Shown here: in pieces, positions 45,968-55,324 of the stretch | Layout of the letters: every line of letters begins with the position of its first letter | Numbering within the stretch: position 1 is the stretch's first letter | Source of the DNA: Rickettsiaceae bacterium | Lineage (GTDB): Bacteria; Pseudomonadota; Alphaproteobacteria; Rickettsiales; Rickettsiaceae | DNA length: 64,000 nt | Reading direction: 5' to 3' | Assembly (NCBI GenBank): GCA_029266475.1 | Contig: JAQSWU010000002.1 | Location: forward strand, 2,852-66,851 | Program-made: the position numbers and the translations under genes | The notes under the pieces: model-generated | Told to the model about the DNA's origin: nothing | Databases searched by the model: none | Seen by the model: only the letters and a program-made list of their open reading frames with translations

Positions 45968-48634
45968 TTAGTTAAGTTTAGGAAAATATAATCTGAATTC
46001 GGTATATTCCCCTTCAGCAGAATCACATTCTATTTTCCCACCAAATTTTTCCATAGTCTCTTTGCAGAAATAAAGCCCTAATCCCGTTCCAATCTGGTTT
46101 GTTGAGAAGAAGCTTTCAAAGATTTTCTTAAGGTTTGATGGAGAGATTCCTAGGCCCGTATCCTTGAATACGATTATATTATACTCCATACCATCCTCGT
46201 ATGTAACAAAAACCCTTGCCTTATTTTTGCCCTTTATATAATAAAGCGAGTTTTTTATTAGATTAAAAATTACATGTTTAAACAAAACCTCATCTCCATA
46301 GAATACAAAGCTATTATCAATATTTATACTTATCAAATCTTTCTCCGTATCTTTGAATGGATACTCTTCTAAAATTGAATGCAGATGATAAGGTACAGAT
46401 ATCCTTTGTCTATAAGATACTTTATTTGTCGTTCCTAGCTTTACCAGCGTAATATCTATAATGGTACCAATATCACTCAAAACTCTCCGTAGCTTCTTAG
46501 AAACTTGTACAGCTTTAGGAATTTGATTAGATTCTAGGCTATTCTCTAATAAGGAGATATTTCCGTTTAATATCATCAAAGGATTCCTTACTTCATGCGC
46601 GATTACGCCAGCTATCACCCTTGCCATATTTAATTTTCTCTCTATCTTCTCCTCTCTACTTTTTGAGAATAAAAGACCTATAATAAAGGAGAAGACTAAG
46701 GTAAAGGAGGCCCATATTACATTGGTAGTATTATATTCCCTTATTATAAAAAGGTTGTCCATGTATGTAAAGATTATACCTCCAACGGTTCCTACAATCA
46801 TAATTATTATGAACATAATCCAATCAACTAAAAGCGCCAATAAAAATATTGATAAAGCTAAAATAATTATTGTTTTTTCGTCGAAACCATTAAATAGTAA
46901 ATTCACCGTATTTGTAAATGGAAGCGAAAACGTTAATACGAAATACCAATAAATTGCTTCAAATCTGCGTATGTTTAAAGGCCAAATGTCTTTGATTAAA
47001 AGTAATACGCAGAAAACTCCTGATAAAAACTTAAGATAGTAGATTTCTACCGAATGGTTTCCGGACCATAAAATATAAGGGAAAATGTATGTAGCTATTA
47101 GAAATATAGAAAATTCTTGGTAAGCAACACCATATTGATCAGATTTTCTATCGTAAAACTTCTTTAGGTTAAAGCGTCTTATATTATTAAGTATTTCCAC
47201 TAGTTGATGTCTTAAATCATCCCTGCTTTTTAAGCTCTGCTTTGGTATCCAGCCGCCAGCTTCTTTAAATATATAATGAGTGGTTAGAAAGCTTGCTATA
47301 TTAGCGAATATACTAGGAATTATGCTATATATATGTGTAAGCTCCTTAAGTTTATAACTCTCCCAAAACAAAAAAGTTGATAAACCTACTAACGACGCTA
47401 CAAAGAATGGTTTAAATGAACTTTTAAACCCGAATATTCCAAGCAGTATTGGACCAACAGAGATAGGACCCCAAAAATTAGAACTAAATATTGCAAGTTC
47501 AAAGATACTTTCGAAACGTAGGGCTAACAAAACAGATAGCCCTCCTCCTATTACCGTGCATAATTTAGATAAATATAATTCACTTTTCTGTTTTAAATTT
47601 ATTCGCAAAGGCTTTACAACGTCATTTACTATTCCTACAGCCATAACATTTAAGTAAGAATCTGCTGTAGACATTATCACAGATAAAATTCCTATTACTG
47701 CCAATCCCTTTAAGCCAGAAGGTAATGCACTGTTCAATAATTCCAGAAAAGCATTATTGGGTGAAATTTTAGGGTATAAGGCATAAGATATTAAGCCTAT
47801 GATGCCTGAAATGGTGGTAAAAGTCATATCAATTATGGCCATTGATATAAAGGATCGGCGAATCTGGCCCACATCTTTTGCCATTAGCATTCTTTGAGCA
47901 AAAGGAGGGCTCATCATAGGAATAGCCATATAAATAAAGACAAATAAGTATTTGATAAAAGTCTGTGAATCCGGATAAATAGATAATTTCTCTTGAGGAA
48001 GTACTTTGAATAACCCCTCATAACCCCCTACTTGTTGCAACCCTACATTTAAAACTATAGGGATAGTGACTATTAGAGCTACAAATTGTAAAACATCCGT
48101 CATAGCCACGGCTTGAACCCCACCAATGCTTGAGTAATAAATTATTACAAGCGATCCAATTATAATTCCTAATTCGGTAGGTATTTGAAATAATGAATTC
48201 CCTACAAAACCTAAAGCCATTACCTGCGCGCTTACCCTTCCTATACATAATAAAGCTCCAGAGATGCCTGTAATTATTCTTGCATTTTTCCCATAAAGAG
48301 CCCCTACTACCTCGCCTACGGACAACATTCCAAAAAACCTCTCCATACGCGGGGCTATAAAAATGGCTATTAGTATTCCCCCTAAACTTACTCCATATTT
48401 TGCTATTATTAGAATAACTCCAACCTTATATACCTCTGTGGCAGTACCTAATGAAGACCCTCCTCCTATCAGCGTGGCACATACAGTCATAGATAAAACC
48501 ACAGAGGAAAGGTTTCGTTTACCTATAGAATACTCTTGAAAGCTTTTTACCCTCTTACTCGAATATATTCCTATAATCAGGGTAAACAATAAGTATAATA
48601 TTATTAAAATTAAGTCTATGCTTGCGTAGTTCAC
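45968..48634 (-). CDS. Sodium:solute symporter (SSF/SLC5)-domain sensor histidine kinase (CbrA/CrbS-like architecture)
   Basis: About 13 TM helices with an SSF-like N-terminus (GGGSSLGTATEVY, IAPRMERF, MSTADSYLN), then extra TM helices. The kinase part has H-box IAGVIAHEVRNPL, an N-box region NLIKNSLYY, and G-boxes FKDTGLGI and GTGLGLYFCKETMEKFGGKIECDS. Confidence 0.85.
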   Translation of the reverse strand: MNYASIDLILIILYLLFTLIIGIYSSKRVKSFQEYSIGKRNLSSVVLSMTVCATLIGGGSSLGTATEVYKVGVILIIAKYGVSLGGILIAIFIAPRMERFFGMLSVGEVVGALYGKNARIITGISGALLCIGRVSAQVMALGFVGNSLFQIPTELGIIIGSLVIIYYSSIGGVQAVAMTDVLQFVALIVTIPIVLNVGLQQVGGYEGLFKVLPQEKLSIYPDSQTFIKYLFVFIYMAIPMMSPPFAQRMLMAKDVGQIRRSFISMAIIDMTFTTISGIIGLISYALYPKISPNNAFLELLNSALPSGLKGLAVIGILSVIMSTADSYLNVMAVGIVNDVVKPLRINLKQKSELYLSKLCTVIGGGLSVLLALRFESIFELAIFSSNFWGPISVGPILLGIFGFKSSFKPFFVASLVGLSTFLFWESYKLKELTHIYSIIPSIFANIASFLTTHYIFKEAGGWIPKQSLKSRDDLRHQLVEILNNIRRFNLKKFYDRKSDQYGVAYQEFSIFLIATYIFPYILWSGNHSVEIYYLKFLSGVFCVLLLIKDIWPLNIRRFEAIYWYFVLTFSLPFTNTVNLLFNGFDEKTIIILALSIFLLALLVDWIMFIIIMIVGTVGGIIFTYMDNLFIIREYNTTNVIWASFTLVFSFIIGLLFSKSREEKIERKLNMARVIAGVIAHEVRNPLMILNGNISLLENSLESNQIPKAVQVSKKLRRVLSDIGTIIDITLVKLGTTNKVSYRQRISVPYHLHSILEEYPFKDTEKDLISINIDNSFVFYGDEVLFKHVIFNLIKNSLYYIKGKNKARVFVTYEDGMEYNIIVFKDTGLGISPSNLKKIFESFFSTNQIGTGLGLYFCKETMEKFGGKIECDSAEGEYTEFRLYFPKLN

Positions 48635-48647
48635 TTAAGCCTTACTG

Positions 48648-50150
48648 TTAGCTGCTTTTAACAAGGTATTTGCTCCGAATATATTCCATATATGTATCTA
48701 CACAGATCATATTACTTCCTGTCGCATCATTTATTAGTTCTTTGACAGGCTTTAATGAGCCAAAATTACGTATATTCTCATTCAAAAAAATATTATATCT
48801 ATCAGCAAGGTTATGTATTGTCCAGGAATTATGATTTGGGAAATTTTCTTTAAAGGTTTTATGCAACATTGATGCATATACTCCACCTATAGTATAAGCA
48901 GGGAAATAACCGAATAATCCTTTAGGCCAATGGATGTCTTGTAAGCAGCCTTCTCTATCATTAACTACTTTTACGCCTAGATACGATTCCATTAATCCAT
49001 TCCAGTAAGCAGGAAGATCCTTTAATTTAAGATGGTCTCCTAATAAAGCTTGCTCAATCTCATATCTTAATATAACATGGAGTGTATATGTTGCTTCATC
49101 CGAATCTATACGTATAGGATTGGGTTTTAGATGAGTGACAATCTTGTATAGGTTATCTGGGTGATACTCGTCACCTTTGAAGCCAAATTCATTATAAAGT
49201 TGTTCAGATAGAAACTCCATAAACCCCTTTGTTCTAACCACCATCATCTCTAGGAATAAAGCTTGGCTTTCATGTATGACCATGCCTTTCGCCTTTCCAA
49301 CAGGTTGGTTTAAATAACACTTTGGCAGATTCAGTTCATATAAGGCATGACCACACTCATGCGCAACGCTCATTATACTGTTTAAAATATTGTTTTCATC
49401 GTATCTAGTAAGTATCCTTATATCATTCGGAGCTCCACCGCAGAAGGGGTGCGGCCCCTGATCGATTCTGCCAACTGAAAAATCGAAACCTAATTTTTCC
49501 ATTATTGTAGAACAGAATTTCCTCTGTTCATTAAGTCCTACTTTAAGGTTAGCTGGTAATATACTTTCTATTAGCTGTGTTTTTTTGATTTCAATGATTA
49601 TTTTCGGTAATTCTTGCTTAAGTCTAGAAAAAGCACTACTTACTTCTCTAATATCCATTGTTGGCAGGTATTTCATACATAGAGCTTGGTAAGGTGTCGT
49701 ATTGAAAGCTTTTGCCTTCACTTCAGCGATTCTTTTAGTGTATCCTAAAACTTTATCTAAATATGGTAGAAGAGAATTATAATCATTTTGAAGTTTAGCT
49801 TTTTTCCAAATATTCTCACTTTCGAAGACAGCTTCTATAAATTCCTCATGCACACTACTTTCAACACAAATAGCTTCTAATCTTCTTTGTTTAATAAGCT
49901 CTAAGTTTGTTTTCTGCCAAATATCTAAATCTCTTGCCTCGTTCTCGGCTCCGTTTATTAGTTTCTCGACTTCTTTAGAAACCAATAATTCATGCGCCAA
50001 TGATGTGAGAATTTTTATTTCTTTTCTTCTACTATTAATAGAATTCTTCGGAATATTTGTGATTAAATCCCAATACAGTATATTAGTAGAATTATTTAAA
50101 AGAAAGATACGCTCAATTTTTGATTCTAATTTAAGATAATTTTTCACCAA
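48648..50150 (-). CDS. M32 (Taq-type) carboxypeptidase
   Basis: HECGHALYE, HESQALFLE, IRIDSDEATY and LQDIHW are the diagnostic M32 motifs. A 13-nt gap separates it from the kinase gene downstream. Confidence 0.9.
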   Translation of the reverse strand: MVKNYLKLESKIERIFLLNNSTNILYWDLITNIPKNSINSRRKEIKILTSLAHELLVSKEVEKLINGAENEARDLDIWQKTNLELIKQRRLEAICVESSVHEEFIEAVFESENIWKKAKLQNDYNSLLPYLDKVLGYTKRIAEVKAKAFNTTPYQALCMKYLPTMDIREVSSAFSRLKQELPKIIIEIKKTQLIESILPANLKVGLNEQRKFCSTIMEKLGFDFSVGRIDQGPHPFCGGAPNDIRILTRYDENNILNSIMSVAHECGHALYELNLPKCYLNQPVGKAKGMVIHESQALFLEMMVVRTKGFMEFLSEQLYNEFGFKGDEYHPDNLYKIVTHLKPNPIRIDSDEATYTLHVILRYEIEQALLGDHLKLKDLPAYWNGLMESYLGVKVVNDREGCLQDIHWPKGLFGYFPAYTIGGVYASMLHKTFKENFPNHNSWTIHNLADRYNIFLNENIRNFGSLKPVKELINDATGSNMICVDTYMEYIRSKYLVKSS

Positions 50151-50480: not shown

Positions 50481-50924
50481 TTATCCCCTATTTTTGTGGA
50501 TAATTTTTTTCTCTCTCTTAGATCCTGGTTTTCTCAATTGAGGCAAGAGCTTCTTGGTATTCTCTGCTTGCTCCTTTGTTATATAACCCACTACATTGCC
50601 AGCAAGGTCTACTCTCCCCTCCCCCTCATTATGCGATAATATATAGGCTCTCTTAGTACAGTAATTCCTCATGAATCCGTTGATCCTGTTCGAGCTTATG
50701 GCATATCCAAGCTCTCTTAACGCTGCCTGTAAATCCAAGCGTATCCCTATTTTCAAAGGCTTCGGGCTCTCTTCAAAAAAGCAATTCGGAAACTTTTCTA
50801 TTAAATAGTTTAATATTTCCTTGTATTCCTCTTTATTGATTCGTGGCTTCTTCCTAGGCTTTGAGTCCTTTCCTTTAGGATTAGCTTCGGCTAATCCTTT
50901 GTCCACTTCGTCTCTCTTCTCCAT
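50481..50924 (-). CDS. ProQ/FinO-family RNA chaperone
   Basis: LIEKFPNCFFEESPKPLKIGIRLDL...AISSNRINGFMRNYCTKRAYILSHNEGEGRVDLAGNVVGYITKEQAENTKK closely follows the ProQ/FinO domain pattern (L.e.FP.cF...pkPLKiGI..DL...  ...lr.aL..Y......Y......g..RvDL.G...g.vt.e....A). It lies 43 nt downstream of rep on the same strand. Confidence 0.85.
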   Translation of the reverse strand: MEKRDEVDKGLAEANPKGKDSKPRKKPRINKEEYKEILNYLIEKFPNCFFEESPKPLKIGIRLDLQAALRELGYAISSNRINGFMRNYCTKRAYILSHNEGEGRVDLAGNVVGYITKEQAENTKKLLPQLRKPGSKREKKIIHKNRG

Positions 50925-50967
50925 AACATTCTTTTAATGTTCCCTCCAGTAAATGAGTAGGCTTTGA

Positions 50968-52674
50968 TTACATAGTAATACAAGGGCTAATGTTCCCCAT
51001 AAAACTATGTTCAGCAAAAACTGGTGTCTTAGGCAAAATATCTGCTTCCTTCTCTTTATCCTTGATCCTAAAGCTAGGTTGCTCGCTCTTCCAAACTATA
51101 TTGCTATAATGACTATTCTCTACCTCATAAACTATCTCTTGTATATACGGCAATTCCGATACAAGAATTCTATTTAGTCTACTACCGTAATTATTCTCAA
51201 CATATTCACTGCGAAATTCAGAAGCAAATGTTAAAACTACCCTACCCTCTCCTTCATATAAGCTATACCTAATTCTGCTAAACCAAGATTTGTCAGCTCC
51301 AGGGTCATATATCTCTCGAAGCTTCCCTCTTACTCTAGCCCAAATCGGATCAACGTTCGAATCATGTTCAATAGAACCTTGTGAGTTATCTTCTAGTTTT
51401 ATACTTGTCTCTACAACACCCTTATCCCTATTACTTTGGATGAATCTTACCTTCCCTACTCCGCTTGTCTCTCCATTAGCAATATCTACTCGTCTCGTCA
51501 CTTCAATTATAATACTCTCTATCTTTTTCATTGTAATTTCATCTAGATCGAGTGTTTCATCATTTATGTAAACTGAATAATTATAGCATCCTTTGTATAC
51601 AGGTCTAAAATAGCATTTCTTAAGTATATTCGTCGCAAGCTTTGGAGCAAACTCTTGAACTATTCGCCTCTTGATCAAGCCCACATCTGAGGTATCATTT
51701 GCAGCCTCTATCTTCTCAAGGTAAGTTTCTTCAAAACACGAATAAGCAAAATTTGTATTATTTACTCTCTCAGGCAAGTGCTTCTCATGCGCTAAGGCTT
51801 TCTCCATGTACCTTAAAAATACCCGTTTATTTATGAATCTCCTATCAGGGTATTTAACATTTAACTTTTGCGCCAAGGCATTAATAAAAGTTTTCCCAAA
51901 GTCTCTACCTACCCTTTGAGCAAGTATATCGATGTCTTTTTCATTAAGAGGTAAAAAGCAGTTTATCGGAAGGGATGGTATTGGCAAGTTTGTGGTTTCA
52001 TTAAGATTAGGTAAAACGAAAGTTTTTTTTAAATCATTAGGTGTTTTTTGTTTGTTTTTATCGGTTACAGTAGTTTCAGATAAGATTACACAATCATCTG
52101 TTAAACCAGACCGTTCATTTGCGTTTGCTTCCGAAAAGTTATTCGATGAAATATTTTCAAAATTAGATTGCTCATTATCTAGATATCTATTTTTATTATT
52201 CTCTTTATATTCTTTATATTTGTCTCCTATAACTTTTGGAGATAACCCCAATATTTTTTGGAGATATAAAGAAAAAATTTCATTTTGTTTATTCAGATGG
52301 ATAAATAAAGCATTAGGGTACTTTTTTCCTCTTACAGTAATACTACGGAATTCTCTCTTTATAAGGTTCAGTTTTTCTAATCTAACCAAGGCAAGTCTTA
52401 TACTTTCCCTGTGATAATTAAATTTGTTGACGAAATGATCATAAGAAGTATGCCAGGCGTCACCATCAAACTTAGATAGGGACTTTTTGTTAGGTCTATA
52501 CCAATAGATTATTTCAGAAATTATATTTATTGATATGTGGTCTGGCTTACCGGTTTTAGTAGTAATTATTTTAAAAAGTGCATTTGGAACTAGGTTTCCA
52601 GTGATATTTAGATACTCTTTATCAGGAGAATCAGTAAGGTGTGGTAAATATACGTCATTTTTTACATTGTTCAT
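50968..52674 (-). CDS. Plasmid replication initiator candidate (DnaA-like protein: winged-helix-like N-terminal region + DnaA-N-like C-terminal domain)
   Basis: The C-terminal DPIWARVRGKLREIYDPGADKSWFSRIRYSLYEGEGRVVLTFASEFRSEYVENNYGSRL resembles DnaA domain I (W..v...L.......f..W...l......  ..l.l..p..f....v...Y). N-terminal LALVRLEKLNLIKREF looks wHTH-like. The gene neighbours parA, as described for DnaA-like proteins on Rickettsia plasmids. Confidence 0.6.
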   Translation of the reverse strand: MNNVKNDVYLPHLTDSPDKEYLNITGNLVPNALFKIITTKTGKPDHISINIISEIIYWYRPNKKSLSKFDGDAWHTSYDHFVNKFNYHRESIRLALVRLEKLNLIKREFRSITVRGKKYPNALFIHLNKQNEIFSLYLQKILGLSPKVIGDKYKEYKENNKNRYLDNEQSNFENISSNNFSEANANERSGLTDDCVILSETTVTDKNKQKTPNDLKKTFVLPNLNETTNLPIPSLPINCFLPLNEKDIDILAQRVGRDFGKTFINALAQKLNVKYPDRRFINKRVFLRYMEKALAHEKHLPERVNNTNFAYSCFEETYLEKIEAANDTSDVGLIKRRIVQEFAPKLATNILKKCYFRPVYKGCYNYSVYINDETLDLDEITMKKIESIIIEVTRRVDIANGETSGVGKVRFIQSNRDKGVVETSIKLEDNSQGSIEHDSNVDPIWARVRGKLREIYDPGADKSWFSRIRYSLYEGEGRVVLTFASEFRSEYVENNYGSRLNRILVSELPYIQEIVYEVENSHYSNIVWKSEQPSFRIKDKEKEADILPKTPVFAEHSFMGNISPCITM

Positions 52675-52723
52675 AATAAAATCCTTTTAAATAGTGATTT
52701 TAGGTATAAACGTAGTAAAAACC

Positions 52724-52752
52724 TTGACAAATAGTCTAATCCAATATATATT
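52724..52752 (+). promoter_or_regulatory. Candidate sigma70-type promoter firing away from rep into the rep-RHH intergenic region
   Basis: TTGACA (52724-52729), a 17-nt spacer, then TATATT (52747-52752). In AT-rich DNA such matches can arise by chance. Confidence 0.3.
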
Positions 52753-52847
52753 AATACATATGTTTAGTACATGTGAGCAAATTGAATAATTCGCTGTGTA
52801 TGACTTTCGCCGGTCCATACTTTTAATGTCGAGTTTTTTGCTACGCT

Positions 52848-52890
52848 TATAAATTCGAAGGAAAACGGCAAATTTTCCTTCGAATTTATA
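52848..52890. terminator. 18-bp perfect-stem hairpin between the RHH gene and rep
   Basis: TATAAATTCGAAGGAAAA (52848-52865) and TTTTCCTTCGAATTTATA (52873-52890) flank a 7-nt loop. The hairpin starts 6 nt after the RHH stop on the minus strand. On the plus strand it is followed by the U-rich TCTTCCTATTTTATTT. Confidence 0.55.
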
Positions 52891-52895
52891 TCTTC

Positions 52896-53090
52896 CTATT
52901 TTATTTCATAACCAAGCCTTTCTAACTTTTCTACAACAGCTTGAGTAATCCAAGAGCCTCTTGGTGCATTAAATTTAGATCTTTCTTTATCTATTAATTG
53001 TACGACAGACTGTTTCATCCTTAAGGTTACAAGTAACTCTTCTTTGGAAGTCAATTTGTCTTTAACTAATTTATCTTTTTCGCTATTCAT
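52896..53090 (-). CDS. Small ribbon-helix-helix (CopG/Arc-like) DNA-binding protein
   Basis: It is 64 aa. LLVTLRMKQSVVQLIDKE...RGSWITQAVVEKLER fits a beta-strand/helix/helix RHH pattern. It lies upstream of rep on the same strand. Confidence 0.55.
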   Translation of the reverse strand: MNSEKDKLVKDKLTSKEELLVTLRMKQSVVQLIDKERSKFNAPRGSWITQAVVEKLERLGYEIK

Positions 53091-53591
53091 TTAAATTATA
53101 TCCTAAAGTATTAAATGTAGGTCTTAAATTACTATCCAAAGTTATAATAAAATATTTGTGAAGTCAATAATATATTATAATAGAATACAAAATAATACAA
53201 AAAACAATAGAGTAGGTATTTTTCTCTAGCTTGAAATGTCAACTAGGAAAAAATTGTATTATGCGATAATATAGTATAATAAAAACATATATTACTATAA
53301 ATAAATGCTACTATATTATTAGTAATCTACGAATAAAAATCCTCCAATAGCCTGTATCCCTTTCTAAACCTAATCTTATTGTCCGGCGCGTATAATAATA
53401 TAGTAACACGATAACATAATAATATATATTATCGGATTATTATGCACCTAGAAACATTAGGCACTTTTTAGATATTTTATGATCAACAATAAAATAGTAT
53501 ATGTGATATAATAACAACTTATAAATTATAAAACCTCCAATTATTGCTGAAGCAAAGCTAATTATTAGTAGGTTTTATACTTATATTCCCT

Positions 53592-53834
53592 CTATTTAGG
53601 TAACTGAAGGGGCCCTTTCTTCTTCTCGTAATCGTTAAGATAAAGTGATAAAGCTTCTTCTACAACACTCTTTATCATTCTTTTTTCCCAGAAGGAGATT
53701 GCTTTGAGCTTATCGTAATGGCTTGATCTTAAAATCAGGGTTGCACGTATTTCTTTATCCTCTTCTTTATTACTTGCCTTATTGTTTCCTTCCAATAGTG
53801 AATCGAAGGGGGTTTTGAAACTTTTTTTGCTCAT
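53592..53834 (-). CDS. Small ParA partner (ParG/RHH-like centromere-binding protein candidate)
   Basis: It is 80 aa. Its start overlaps the parA stop by 1 nt (TAATG). ATLILRSSHYDKLKAISFWEKRMIKSVVEEALSLYL is RHH-like. Confidence 0.6.
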   Translation of the reverse strand: MSKKSFKTPFDSLLEGNNKASNKEEDKEIRATLILRSSHYDKLKAISFWEKRMIKSVVEEALSLYLNDYEKKKGPLQLPK

Positions 53835-54580
53835 TAGAATATACCTTTATTTATAATTTCGTTGCATAGATCATCATAATCCAATGCGCCTTTACATGTT
53901 CTGTTATATAAGAATATGTCCTTCGCTTGGCTTGGCGCTTCTGCTAAAGCGATATTATTGGATATTCTTGTAGATAGTAACTTGTCTCCAAAGAAGTCTT
54001 CCACACTTTCTGCTATATCCCTATTTAATACTTTCCTTGGATCATATTGAGTTAAAAATACGCACCCAACTTTTAAACTACTATTTAACCTTGTTTTGAT
54101 TTTATCTATTACTTCAGTAAGTTTGGCTAAACCTCTTAATGGCAAATACTCCGCTTGCATAGGAATAATTACGTAGTCAGAAGTTGTTAATGCGTTGATT
54201 GTCAATAATCCTAGCGACGGAGGGCAGTCTATTAATATATAGTCAAATTTATTCTTTAATGGCACTAATATATCCTTTAGTAGATACTCTCTCCCTGGCT
54301 CCGAGCTAAGCTCAATTTCAGCCGCAGAAAGATCCAAAGAAGAAGGTAATACATATAAATTAGTTCTATATTCGATTGGGTGTACCATTTTTTGACCCTT
54401 CAAATTTTCGTATATAGAAATTTCAACATTTTTTATTCCAAGACTCTGGGTTAAATTTGCTTGAGGGTCAAGGTCTACTAAAAGAACTCTTTTTCCCTTA
54501 TTGGCTAACGCCGCTCCAATATTTATGGTTGAAGTGGTTTTACCTACCCCCCCTTTGTGATTGCTTATTGCGTAAATCAT
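53834..54580 (-). CDS. parA: ParA-family partition ATPase
   Basis: Deviant Walker A SNHKGGVGKTTST, then VLLVDLDPQANLT and ILIDCPPSLG. Confidence 0.9.
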   Translation of the reverse strand: MIYAISNHKGGVGKTTSTINIGAALANKGKRVLLVDLDPQANLTQSLGIKNVEISIYENLKGQKMVHPIEYRTNLYVLPSSLDLSAAEIELSSEPGREYLLKDILVPLKNKFDYILIDCPPSLGLLTINALTTSDYVIIPMQAEYLPLRGLAKLTEVIDKIKTRLNSSLKVGCVFLTQYDPRKVLNRDIAESVEDFFGDKLLSTRISNNIALAEAPSQAKDIFLYNRTCKGALDYDDLCNEIINKGIF

Positions 54581-54772
54581 TTGATTCTCTTTTAAAAGGT
54601 TACTAGTAATATAAAAATACGTATGCTCAAAAATATAGAAACATATACGACAAATAATATGGGAATATTATCTTATTTCAACTTATTTCAGAATAGTTTA
54701 AAAAAATAATAAGCAAATGTTACTCACGCGCAAAGTTCAGCTATCAACCGTTGAGCGGGGTGTGTATTCCTA

Positions 54773-55324
54773 TATTACTATGCATATATTCTACCATATG
54801 CATAGTAATATACCAAACTTTAACCGCAAATGCTTTTAAATTATTTTAAAGTATAAAACTTATAAGTTATAACCCAAGAAGCATATGATTGACTAACTTG
54901 GTTAGCGCTATATTGTATATCATCCTCACGAATAATACTTCTGCTGAGCATAAGTATTACTATATTATAATATTACCGTATTACTATGCATACATATTAT
55001 AACACTCGAAAATTATAACATTAAGCTCTTTCGGGTTGCTTTTTATCGTATGTTTAGAGTTATATGTCTATAAACATATAATAATAAAAGCAGTCAGTAA
55101 TATAAGCACAAATATTACTTTGTATTCATTGAAGTATAAATATAACAATAGATATAAGTTTAAATGGAGGCTAAATACATTTATATAACTCTACTTGAAA
55201 TAAATTGTTGTCCTATGTGGGCTTAAAAGGATATTTGGGTTATGTGCTATGAAGTCAATATGGTTTTAAACCTTATGTTACCATATTACCAAAAACATAT
55301 AATACCAAATTACTGTATTACTAT
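54773..55324. repeat. Array of TATTACTAT motifs upstream of parA (candidate centromere / operator sites)
   Basis: Exact TATTACTAT occurs at 54773, 54955, 54979 and 55316, and inverted (ATAGTAATA) at 54802. The first and the inverted copy form a 15-bp-arm inverted repeat, TATTACTATGCATAT-8nt-ATATGCATAGTAATA (54773-54810). One more exact copy lies at 53290 on the other side of the par genes. Confidence 0.55.

Follow-up and report, generated by a model that had tools for sequence, protein, structure and literature searches.

The 64,000-nucleotide (nt) stretch of DNA analyzed here, referred to as the window and numbered by position within it, contains at 50481-53090 an interval that our comparisons support as a plasmid replication module. 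In front of its replication gene, rep, we predict a conserved and undescribed antisense RNA. This countertranscript (ctRNA) is strongly supported, in that promoter position, terminator, strand-specific G·U pairing and compensatory changes agree. We further propose that the interval is a copy-control core in which the ctRNA, a probable ribbon-helix-helix (RHH) protein and a ProQ/FinO-domain protein act in the manner described below, and we place the probability of this proposal at roughly 0.6. All of the features that an earlier note on this DNA had listed were recovered on the same strand and at the same coordinates. The predicted features, including those added by our analysis, are:

50481-50924, minus strand: proQ, a ProQ/FinO-domain RNA-binding protein of 147 amino acids (aa) with basic N- and C-terminal tails (Pfam ProQ)
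50968-52674, minus strand: rep, a DnaA-like plasmid replication protein of 568 aa (Pfam DnaA_N at aa 444-504, E = 1.5e-9)
52677-52702, minus strand: rep leader hairpin pairing the Shine-Dalgarno sequence (SD; AAAAGGA, 52688-52682) with an upstream anti-SD (-8.0 kcal/mol, z = -3.2)
52724-52752, plus strand: predicted ctRNA promoter, TTGACA-17 nt-TATATT, an 11/12 consensus match with an A-tract in front
52759 to 52900-52906, plus strand: predicted ctRNA of ~140-148 nt, defined by a promoter-terminator pair and antisense to the RHH-rep intercistronic leader and the last RHH codons
52848-52890, plus strand: predicted intrinsic terminator hairpin of the ctRNA, a perfect 18-bp stem with a 7-nt loop (arms 52848-52865 and 52873-52890)
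52891-52906, plus strand: U-rich 3′ tail of the predicted ctRNA, UCUUCCUAUUUUAUUU, overlapping the stop codon and last codons of the RHH gene
52896-53090, minus strand: probable RHH protein of 64 aa and candidate Cop-like repressor (open reading frame [ORF] list; homologue profile)
53091-53591, no strand assigned: AT-rich intergenic region of ~500 bp with many short direct and inverted repeats (repeat listing)

The predicted countertranscript and its promoter

The earlier note had placed a plus-strand promoter at 52724-52752 and had cautioned that such a match alone might be due to chance in AT-rich DNA, and both points held. The site is present and is the best promoter match in the 50-54 kb region of the window (overall GC content 33.9%). 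Promoter-like sites in this region number 14, compared with 18.6 in shuffles, so the window match alone proves nothing. Comparison with related loci is more informative. These comprise approximately 20 lineages, with 27-55% identity between their Rep proteins and that of the window, and the region from the upstream gene to rep was taken from each. Although this intergenic DNA is otherwise mostly unalignable, about 20 diverged lineages have a σ70-like promoter on the antisense strand that is directed away from rep and has its -35 box 29-51 nt before the rep ATG; the spacer is nearly always 17 nt long. Scores against the consensus (loci are designated by L numbers or plasmid names) were:

11/12: the window; L011
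10/12: L152; L001/L002/L006; L150; L005 (Megaira pMegNEIS296); L073/L010; L153; L160 (pRAM18-type pMCE_2)
10/12 with a 16-nt spacer: L158 (Megaira plasmid)
9/12: L009, L070, L151, pRF (R. felis)
Weaker positional homologues: L072, L013, pRAMAC23, L004, L007, L078

Eight of the 11 lineages counted scored at least 10/12. With a background of 1.6e-4 per position and a span of 23 nt, the probability of at least 8 of 11 is ~6e-18, a value that treats the lineages as independent and is hence optimistic. Judged from this comparison, the recurrent antisense promoter is not due to chance. A T-run beside a CAAGG motif in the leaders is better read as the A-tract (UP-like element) of this promoter. An attenuator reading of the same T-run was rejected, as inspection of the leaders by eye revealed no consistent upstream stem partner.

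At the other end of the predicted RNA is the 18-bp repeat. The window contains seven strong local inverted repeats including this one, whose arm is found nowhere else in it. A T-run follows the hairpin on the plus strand only (TCTTCCTATTTTAT, 9 T in 14 nt, versus a single T in AGCGTAGCAAAAAA on the minus strand), and the T-tract lies on the antisense side in all 13 of the loci compared. The ctRNA as a whole is predicted to fold into 5′ stem-loops and the terminator (-35.9 kcal/mol, z = -3.3). Equivalent RNAs of 52-148 nt were predicted in 19 lineages, each terminated by a hairpin and U-tract adjoining the stop codon of the gene upstream.

Pairing within the hairpin differs between the strands. 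Folding of the homologous hairpin in relatives favors the antisense over the sense strand by 5-11 kcal/mol (-13.3 versus -3.2 kcal/mol in L005, -17.3 versus -6.6 in L072, -16.1 versus -6.6 in L010 and -10.5 versus -2.7 in L153). Imperfect arms pair on the antisense strand through G·U, and the mRNA-strand equivalents are A·C mismatches. An alignment of 12 sequences showed the helix to be 93.5% paired in the antisense direction and 77.8% in the sense direction, with G·U in 17 and 0 cells, respectively, and with compensatory changes at three pairs. None of 500 shuffles (mean 0.222) and none of the slid controls (0.108 or less) reached its covariation score of 0.374. The L001 group has a single long hairpin with five invariant G·U pairs. 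Such asymmetry is predicted by an RNA element on the antisense strand, not by a DNA palindrome or an mRNA element. The earlier reading of the hairpin at 52848-52890 and its U-rich tract as a terminator is thus borne out by the plus-strand T-run and by strand-specific pairing in relatives. The proposed RNA of ~140 nt, antisense to the RHH-rep leader, agrees with our prediction of 140-148 nt, and comparison indicates that its promoter and terminator are conserved.

A covariance model was built from the commonest terminator class and run over 627 kb. All matches at E < 0.02 lay upstream of rep on the antisense strand, and the model recovered two loci outside its training set (L078, E = 0.017; L160, a pRAM18-type plasmid, E = 4e-5). 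It missed the window, L152 and the L001 group, which bear other terminator sequences. Because of this difference, the homology of the window's RNA to the main class is a matter of position and architecture rather than sequence; its hairpin does resemble that of L152. A consensus scan of L005 located the best promoter and the sole terminator on the antisense strand and in the correct order, and the ctRNA module was also found in pRAMAC23, pRF and the pRAM18-type plasmid. Rfam yielded no match to a ctRNA family in the window at E up to 1, and in seven related loci it gave a single sub-threshold match downstream of rep (ctRNA_pT181, 36.7 bits versus 56). Likewise, the literature that we searched described no antisense RNA acting in the replication of Rickettsia or Megaira plasmids. 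That the ctRNA is made is an inference.

Two further observations concern the RNA itself. The ctRNAs of L005, L073, L010, L070, L158, L155 and L004 share a small GC-rich hairpin (~GCUKSCAGGC) in AT-rich RNA, which is a candidate kissing-loop for the start of pairing. In the window, the ctRNA starts with AUG and could encode a 9-aa peptide (MFSTCEQIE; 52760-52789, plus strand). This reading frame is not conserved in L152 or other lineages and is probably a chance occurrence.

Proteins encoded by the module

The 568-aa protein had been described as a DnaA-like Rep, and this was upheld by both its DnaA_N match and its homology to plasmid proteins. In tblastn searches, it matched DnaA-like proteins in plasmid records of Rickettsia (30) and Megaira (6), with E values down to 2e-30. 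Identity to the Rickettsia plasmid proteins is 27-33% across aa ~240-520, and the N-terminal half differs. Nearer relatives (31-55% identity) were found in metagenomes only. In an AlphaFold model of Rep (mean predicted local distance difference test score, 64), a winged-helix-like domain at the N terminus is followed by a disordered linker (aa 143-231), a helical middle and a module resembling DnaA domain I (aa ~443-530). Foldseek matched the model to winged helix-turn-helix folds (winged-helix repressors) and to DnaA domain I (4tps, template modelling score 0.71-0.73), with no significant E value among the matches. These homologies relate the protein to the DnaA-like replication proteins that Rickettsia and Megaira plasmids encode.

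Residues 22-128 of Rep, taken alone, have relatives with 30-44% identity in very distant bacteria, among them Lachnospiraceae, Clostridium, Lysinibacillus, Competibacter and Acinetobacter. The N-terminal domain is a widely shared DNA-binding module, probably a winged helix, and is fused here to a Rickettsiales-specific C-terminal half. In Megaira chromosomes and metagenomes (L008, L014, L012, L065, L074-L077), chromosomal copies of a related rep gene have two genes in front of them, one of 129 aa abutting the rep start and an 87-aa helix-turn-helix gene. These copies carry neither the RHH gene nor the antisense module and are probably integrated elements with other control.

The 64-aa ORF lies on the same strand as rep and ends 221 nt before its ATG. 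A small repressor-type gene immediately upstream of rep and co-oriented with it was also seen in more than 10 related lineages. When 11 positional homologues were used in a profile search of the PDB, RHH proteins ranked at the top (NikR N-terminus, 7.5e-4; CopG-family 7by2, 6e-3), followed by HicB, EndoAI and MetJ. Pfam RHH_1 or HicB-like profiles were matched weakly by 3-4 of the 11 homologues (RHH_1 by three, best E = 0.013), and NCBIfam gave a weak match of the RHH candidate to the BrnA antitoxin (E = 0.0057). The window protein itself had no Pfam match, and its AlphaFold model, computed as a single sequence with neither alignment nor dimer, is one long helix with zero strands and is not decisive. 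What the earlier note called an RHH gene therefore stands as to ORF, strand, size and co-orientation with rep, while its RHH identity is weakly supported and is best described as probable. The RHH-rep operon presumably has its promoter and operator in the AT-rich region upstream of the RHH gene, where an ori or parS may be located as well. Weak minus-strand promoter-like sites are present there at 53525-53496 and 53301-53273.

The RHH proteins and Reps of two relatives differ in how closely they match those of the window. The RHH of L072 (3637-3783) is 71% identical to the window's and its Rep just 29%; the corresponding values for L152 are 64% and 32%. Reshuffling of the RHH gene and rep explains this mismatch, the junction being the antisense-RNA region.

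The gene behind rep encodes, by homology, a clear ProQ/FinO-domain protein. It matches Pfam ProQ (PF04352) at 1.1e-23 and 83.7 bits, against a cutoff of 27, over profile positions 3-107 of 109. Its PDB matches include the ProQ N-terminal domain (4.5e-12), RocC (6.6e-7) and FinO (5.7e-4). PLKIGI, the tyrosine in KRAYIL and RVDLxGN align with E. coli ProQ and are invariant in the three rep-linked homologues; PLKIGI, this tyrosine and RVDLxGN are described as RNA-contact residues (PMC9674577, PMC7367173). The spacing of 43 nt that had been noted between the rep stop codon and proQ is exact. A terminator scan of the window found none between the two genes, and proQ is probably co-transcribed with rep.

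A rep-adjacent ProQ was found in three lineages only: the window (43 nt), L003 (44 nt; Rep 55% identical to the window's) and L150/L159 (39 nt; 42%), the latter being two contigs that overlap at 97.8% identity over 275 nt. The L001 group, in which Rep is 41% identical, has no ProQ next to rep. The distributions of the ctRNA (~20 lineages) and of rep-adjacent ProQ (three) thus do not coincide, and because the ctRNA is far more widespread, it does not depend on a rep-adjacent ProQ. Conversely, maintenance of the rep-proQ adjacency in three diverged lineages argues for a replication-related role. We saw no link between the presence of ProQ and hairpin type; the hairpin of L150, which has ProQ, is weak like that of the ProQ-less L001.

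FinO domains recognize intrinsic terminators with 3′ tails (PMC9674577) and favor terminator hairpins with a free 3′ U-tail (PMC9674577, PMC7367173), and a ligand of this shape is present in the predicted ctRNA. FinO-domain control of plasmid replication is already known from FopA/Inc on IncI-alpha plasmids, PcnR on IncI2 and FinO/RepX (PMC9977716, PMC7491321, PMC8053102, PMC8136791). Inc is an antisense RNA that controls replication, and FopA binds it, protects it and accelerates its pairing (PMC7491321, PMC9977716). By analogy, the most economical reading would be that ProQ acts on the countertranscript. The earlier suggestion of an unusual copy-control arrangement stands for the position of ProQ behind rep, though not for FinO-domain replication control as such. 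In the literature on that subject, we found no description of a FinO-domain gene directly behind rep, and the novelty on the ProQ side looks to be this placement only.

Proposed control of rep and rival explanations

As we read the folds, 19 of 20 lineages have an SD-sequestering hairpin ahead of rep. The sequence of the hairpin varies (UUACUCC/GGAGUAA, GCUCC/GGAGC, GGUCUCU/GGAGACU), and conservation of the structure implies that rep is under translational control. Since the SD is masked, translation of rep seems to need an activating step, as in R1 and the I-complex plasmids. Two simple ideas were considered. For a thermodynamic switch in SD accessibility, folding the leaders of 19 lineages with the ctRNA target blocked had no consistent effect. 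Coupling through a leader peptide, similar to tap of R1, was suggested by a 43-aa ORF (52818-52687, minus strand) that starts inside the ctRNA-covered region and ends, in frame, 12 nt before the rep ATG, with its stop touching the rep SD. As a general mechanism this fails, because L001, L002, L005, L073, L010, L153 and L158 have no comparable ORF.

A further element of the leader is found in most relatives (e.g. L070, L013, L004), where an mRNA-strand copy of the terminator 5′ arm, AAAGGUGCU or AAGGAGUU, follows the stop codon of the upstream gene. These sequences are SD-like and partly complementary to the anti-SD arm. They might open the rep leader hairpin unless covered by the ctRNA; a folding test gave no confirmation of this.

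Based on these observations, we propose the following mechanism. The RHH gene, rep and proQ would form a single minus-strand operon downstream of parA and a small parB-like gene. No sense-strand promoter scoring at least 9/12 exists between RHH and rep in the window, so rep is probably read from upstream of RHH. The near-consensus promoter in the rep leader would fire in the opposite direction, giving an untranslated ctRNA of ~140-148 nt that ends at the 18-bp hairpin and U-tract abutting the RHH stop codon. This RNA would be fully complementary to the RHH-rep intercistronic leader, and its level would track plasmid copy number. Pairing with the leader would lower Rep synthesis and, because proQ is on the same mRNA, ProQ synthesis too. 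The RHH protein would repress the operon promoter. ProQ/FinO would bind the terminator hairpin and 3′ tail of the ctRNA, stabilizing the RNA and speeding its pairing, as FopA does with Inc. The ctRNA would probably repress rep through a leader duplex that leads to mRNA cleavage or through a block of SD-hairpin opening. More broadly, duplex cleavage, loss of an activator contact, attenuation and interference are candidates for the step after pairing. Autorepression by RHH and the link between ProQ and the ctRNA are likewise proposed.

Several observations weigh against this proposal. From its start ~85 nt in front of the rep ATG, the ctRNA extends away from rep, so that it overlaps neither the ribosome-binding site nor the start codon of rep, and the in-silico block of its target changed SD accessibility inconsistently, as mentioned above. 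Candidate separate rep promoters lie downstream of the ctRNA start in L002 and L150. The window's own hairpin is a perfect palindrome and for that reason carries no strand-specific G·U signal; its energies on the two strands are -19.7 and -21.4 kcal/mol, and its U-tract is interrupted (UCUUCCUAUUUU). The ctRNA module is not universal, as it was not detected in pRM, pRPR, pRA1, pPCS201 or L071. The RHH assignment depends on E values of ~1e-3, and alignment of the regions upstream of the three closest RHH genes (window, L152 and L072) found no conserved operator. Finally, many lineages have the ctRNA module and no rep-adjacent ProQ, the ProQ genes of other Rickettsiaceae plasmids lie in unrelated neighborhoods, and some plasmids have no ProQ at all.

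The points concerning ProQ are also what would be expected if the protein did not act through the ctRNA. Instead, it could bind a stem-loop of the rep leader mRNA, perhaps the sense copy of the 18-bp hairpin, which in the window folds equally well on the mRNA strand, or it could serve other plasmid or host RNAs and be merely linked to rep. There is a precedent in PcnR, which represses RepA by binding leader mRNA independently of antisense RNA (PMC9977716, PMC8053102). Against this, a spacing of 39-44 nt from rep has been kept in three diverged lineages, and the free 3′ U-tail preferred by FinO domains (PMC9674577, PMC7367173) is present on the ctRNA and absent from an internal mRNA hairpin. 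We consider action of ProQ apart from the ctRNA rather unlikely. The promoter raises a different question. Being near-consensus, preceded by an A-tract and facing the operon promoter, it could act chiefly by transcriptional interference with read-through from the RHH promoter, via collision or occlusion, with the RNA having little activity in trans. The uncovered rep ribosome-binding site and the lack of a consistent RNA-level switch in the accessibility test fit this explanation. Interference does not, however, need the structural selection seen on the RNA body and terminator (G·U asymmetry, compensatory changes and conserved 5′ stem-loops with GC-rich loops), and known Cop/ctRNA systems act in trans (PMC5717011). 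An effect mainly through interference is therefore, in our opinion, improbable.

It could also be argued that the hairpin is a sense element, such as a terminator, attenuator or stabilizer of the RHH transcript, or a DNA site for an operator, Rep binding or the origin, and that the promoter match is a product of chance in AT-rich DNA. The window hairpin, which folds on both strands, and a count of promoter-like sites in 50-54 kb that does not rise above shuffles are compatible with this. The T-tract, on the other hand, is on the plus strand only, the hairpins of relatives lose pairing in the sense direction (77.8% versus 93.5%, with G·U 0 versus 17), and the promoter recurs at the same place in ~20 lineages amid unalignable DNA. 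Given these results, we regard a sense or DNA element as very improbable and retain the copy-control mechanism proposed above.

The surrounding plasmid and related systems

A partition gene and its putative partner precede the RHH gene on the same strand:

53592-53834, minus strand: small parB-like partner gene, 80 aa, overlapping the parA stop codon (ORF list)
53834-54580, minus strand: parA, partition ATPase, 248 aa, first gene of the par-rep block (Pfam AAA_31 1.2e-59, CbiA, ParA; NCBIfam ParA_partition)

In the window, parA lies 1.2 kb upstream of rep, and its position is the same in related loci. The 80-aa ORF had no family match in Pfam and NCBIfam scans and is proposed as a parB-like partner from its position; its homologues adjoin parA in L152 (60% identity) and L072 (47%). 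The minus-strand order is thus parA, the parB-like gene, the RHH-like gene, rep and proQ. The order parA, small gene, small RHH-like gene and rep is also found in Megaira pMegNEIS296, R. amblyommatis pRAMAC23 and several metagenomic contigs. Because this gene order recurs in Megaira and Rickettsia plasmids and metagenomic contigs, the window most likely belongs to a plasmid carried by a Megaira-like member of the Rickettsiaceae. The plasmid collection PLSDB contained no DNA nearly identical to the window, its own replicon included.

Approximately 190 nt in front of parA, a perfect 17-bp inverted repeat with an 8-nt spacer (54771-54812) could serve as a par operator or centromere-like site, and a near-palindrome is located close by at 54854-54871. 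On its other side, the replication module is adjoined by an 888-aa ORF (45968-48634) and an ORF of ~500 aa (48648-50150). Viewed by eye, the former seems to join a membrane domain of the sodium/solute-symporter type to a histidine-kinase end, and the latter looks like an M32 carboxypeptidase. Large solute-carrier (SSF) genes also adjoin rep in L001 and in the Megaira plasmid L004.

The predicted ctRNA has implications for the study of Rickettsiales plasmids. Replicating Rickettsia shuttle vectors made from pRAM18 and pRAM32 fragments carry parA, a dnaA-like gene "and intervening sequences", according to PMC3244465, which also attributes the coexistence of Rickettsia plasmids and shuttle vectors to parA. 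In the pRAM18-type plasmid, the sequences between parA and the dnaA-like gene contain the ctRNA module. A conserved ctRNA in this position would be a candidate for setting low copy number and for determining which plasmids and shuttle vectors can be maintained together. In the literature, we found no account of replication control by RNA in plasmids of Rickettsia, Megaira and their relatives, with the text of PMC3244465 not having been searched for RNA control. We can speculate that the ctRNA is a general determinant of copy number and incompatibility in the DnaA-like plasmids of Rickettsiaceae, shuttle-vector replicons included, and that in the window's subclade it controls both the initiator and its own FinO-domain helper on one mRNA, a closed feedback loop undescribed for any plasmid. 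This broader view is possible and can be held only tentatively. In addition, finding ProQ behind rep carries the association of FinO-domain proteins with control of plasmid replication beyond Enterobacteria. With one RNA, one target and one chaperone in ~2.6 kb, the system is compact and could be used to study FinO-assisted cis-antisense pairing. The ctRNA lies outside Rfam and could be added to it as a family.

The earlier note had likened the module to copG/RNAII/repB of pMV158, and the likeness holds for layout. As in that streptococcal rolling-circle plasmid, rep is immediately preceded on its own strand by a small gene for an RHH repressor (a probable one in the window), and a countertranscript from a promoter in the cop-rep intergenic region runs toward cop to an intrinsic terminator, giving dual control by protein and RNA (PMC5717011, PMC4485353). 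The mechanism and the family do not carry over. RNAII (~50 nt, compared with ~140 nt here) pairs with the translation initiation region of repB, whereas the ctRNA of the window starts upstream of the rep translation start, heads away from it and leaves it uncovered. Furthermore, RepB is a rolling-circle protein and the Rep described here has a DnaA_N match and a winged-helix-like domain and belongs to a plasmid presumably of the theta type, and no FinO-type protein is involved in pMV158.

The copB-copA-tap-repA region of R1/IncFII is closer in some of these respects. It is theta-type, with a Cop repressor gene upstream and a masked rep ribosome-binding site that needs activation, and its antisense RNA CopA (~90 nt), which has stem-loops plus a terminator, targets a part of the leader far ahead of the rep start (PMC5717011 and general background on R1). 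R1 differs in working through the leader peptide tap, since the 43-aa ORF of the window is placed alike and yet is absent in many relatives, and its Rep and RNA have no sequence relation to the window's. To our knowledge, no chaperone is needed in R1 replication control. In Alphaproteobacteria, repABC plasmids unite parA-like and parB-like genes, an antisense RNA and an initiator gene in one block. They share with the window an alphaproteobacterial host and the same block order, with the ctRNA before the initiator. The differences are that the window has no Rfam ctRNA match, its Rep lacks a RepC domain, an extra RHH gene stands between parB and rep, and the par genes of relatives are not always co-oriented with rep.

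For ProQ, the nearest parallels are Inc/repZ and FopA of IncI-alpha pCol1B9, PcnR of IncI2, and FinO with RepX of pRSF1010, in all of which a plasmid-encoded FinO-domain protein lowers replication (PMC7491321, PMC9977716, PMC8053102, PMC8136791). FopA binds and stabilizes the cis-antisense RNA of the rep leader and makes pairing ~sevenfold faster; Inc, similar to the predicted ctRNA, ends in a terminator and U-stretch, and the rep ribosome-binding site is structurally masked (PMC7491321, PMC9977716). In contrast, fopA is located between yafA and yagA, genes of unknown function, and co-occurs phylogenetically with Inc (PMC7491321), whereas proQ follows rep by 43 nt and the ctRNA is far more widespread than adjacent ProQ. 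The FopA-type systems also belong to enterobacterial rather than Rickettsiales hosts, their Rep, RNA and protein have no close sequence relation to those of the window (FinO, E = 5.7e-4), and the system described here is known from sequence alone. The Rickettsia parA/dnaA-like replicons (pRAM18, pRAM23, pRAM32, pRF) share a homologous Rep, the parA linkage and the ctRNA module (in pRAMAC23, pRF and the pRAM18-type plasmid), and they differ in the N-terminal half of Rep and, in those checked, in having no ProQ next to rep.

In conclusion, the module as proposed works like the pMV158 and R1 systems and is a member of neither. FinO-domain replication control and the layout of a Cop protein with a ctRNA are known, and what looks new is the predicted Rickettsiaceae ctRNA and the placement of ProQ behind rep.

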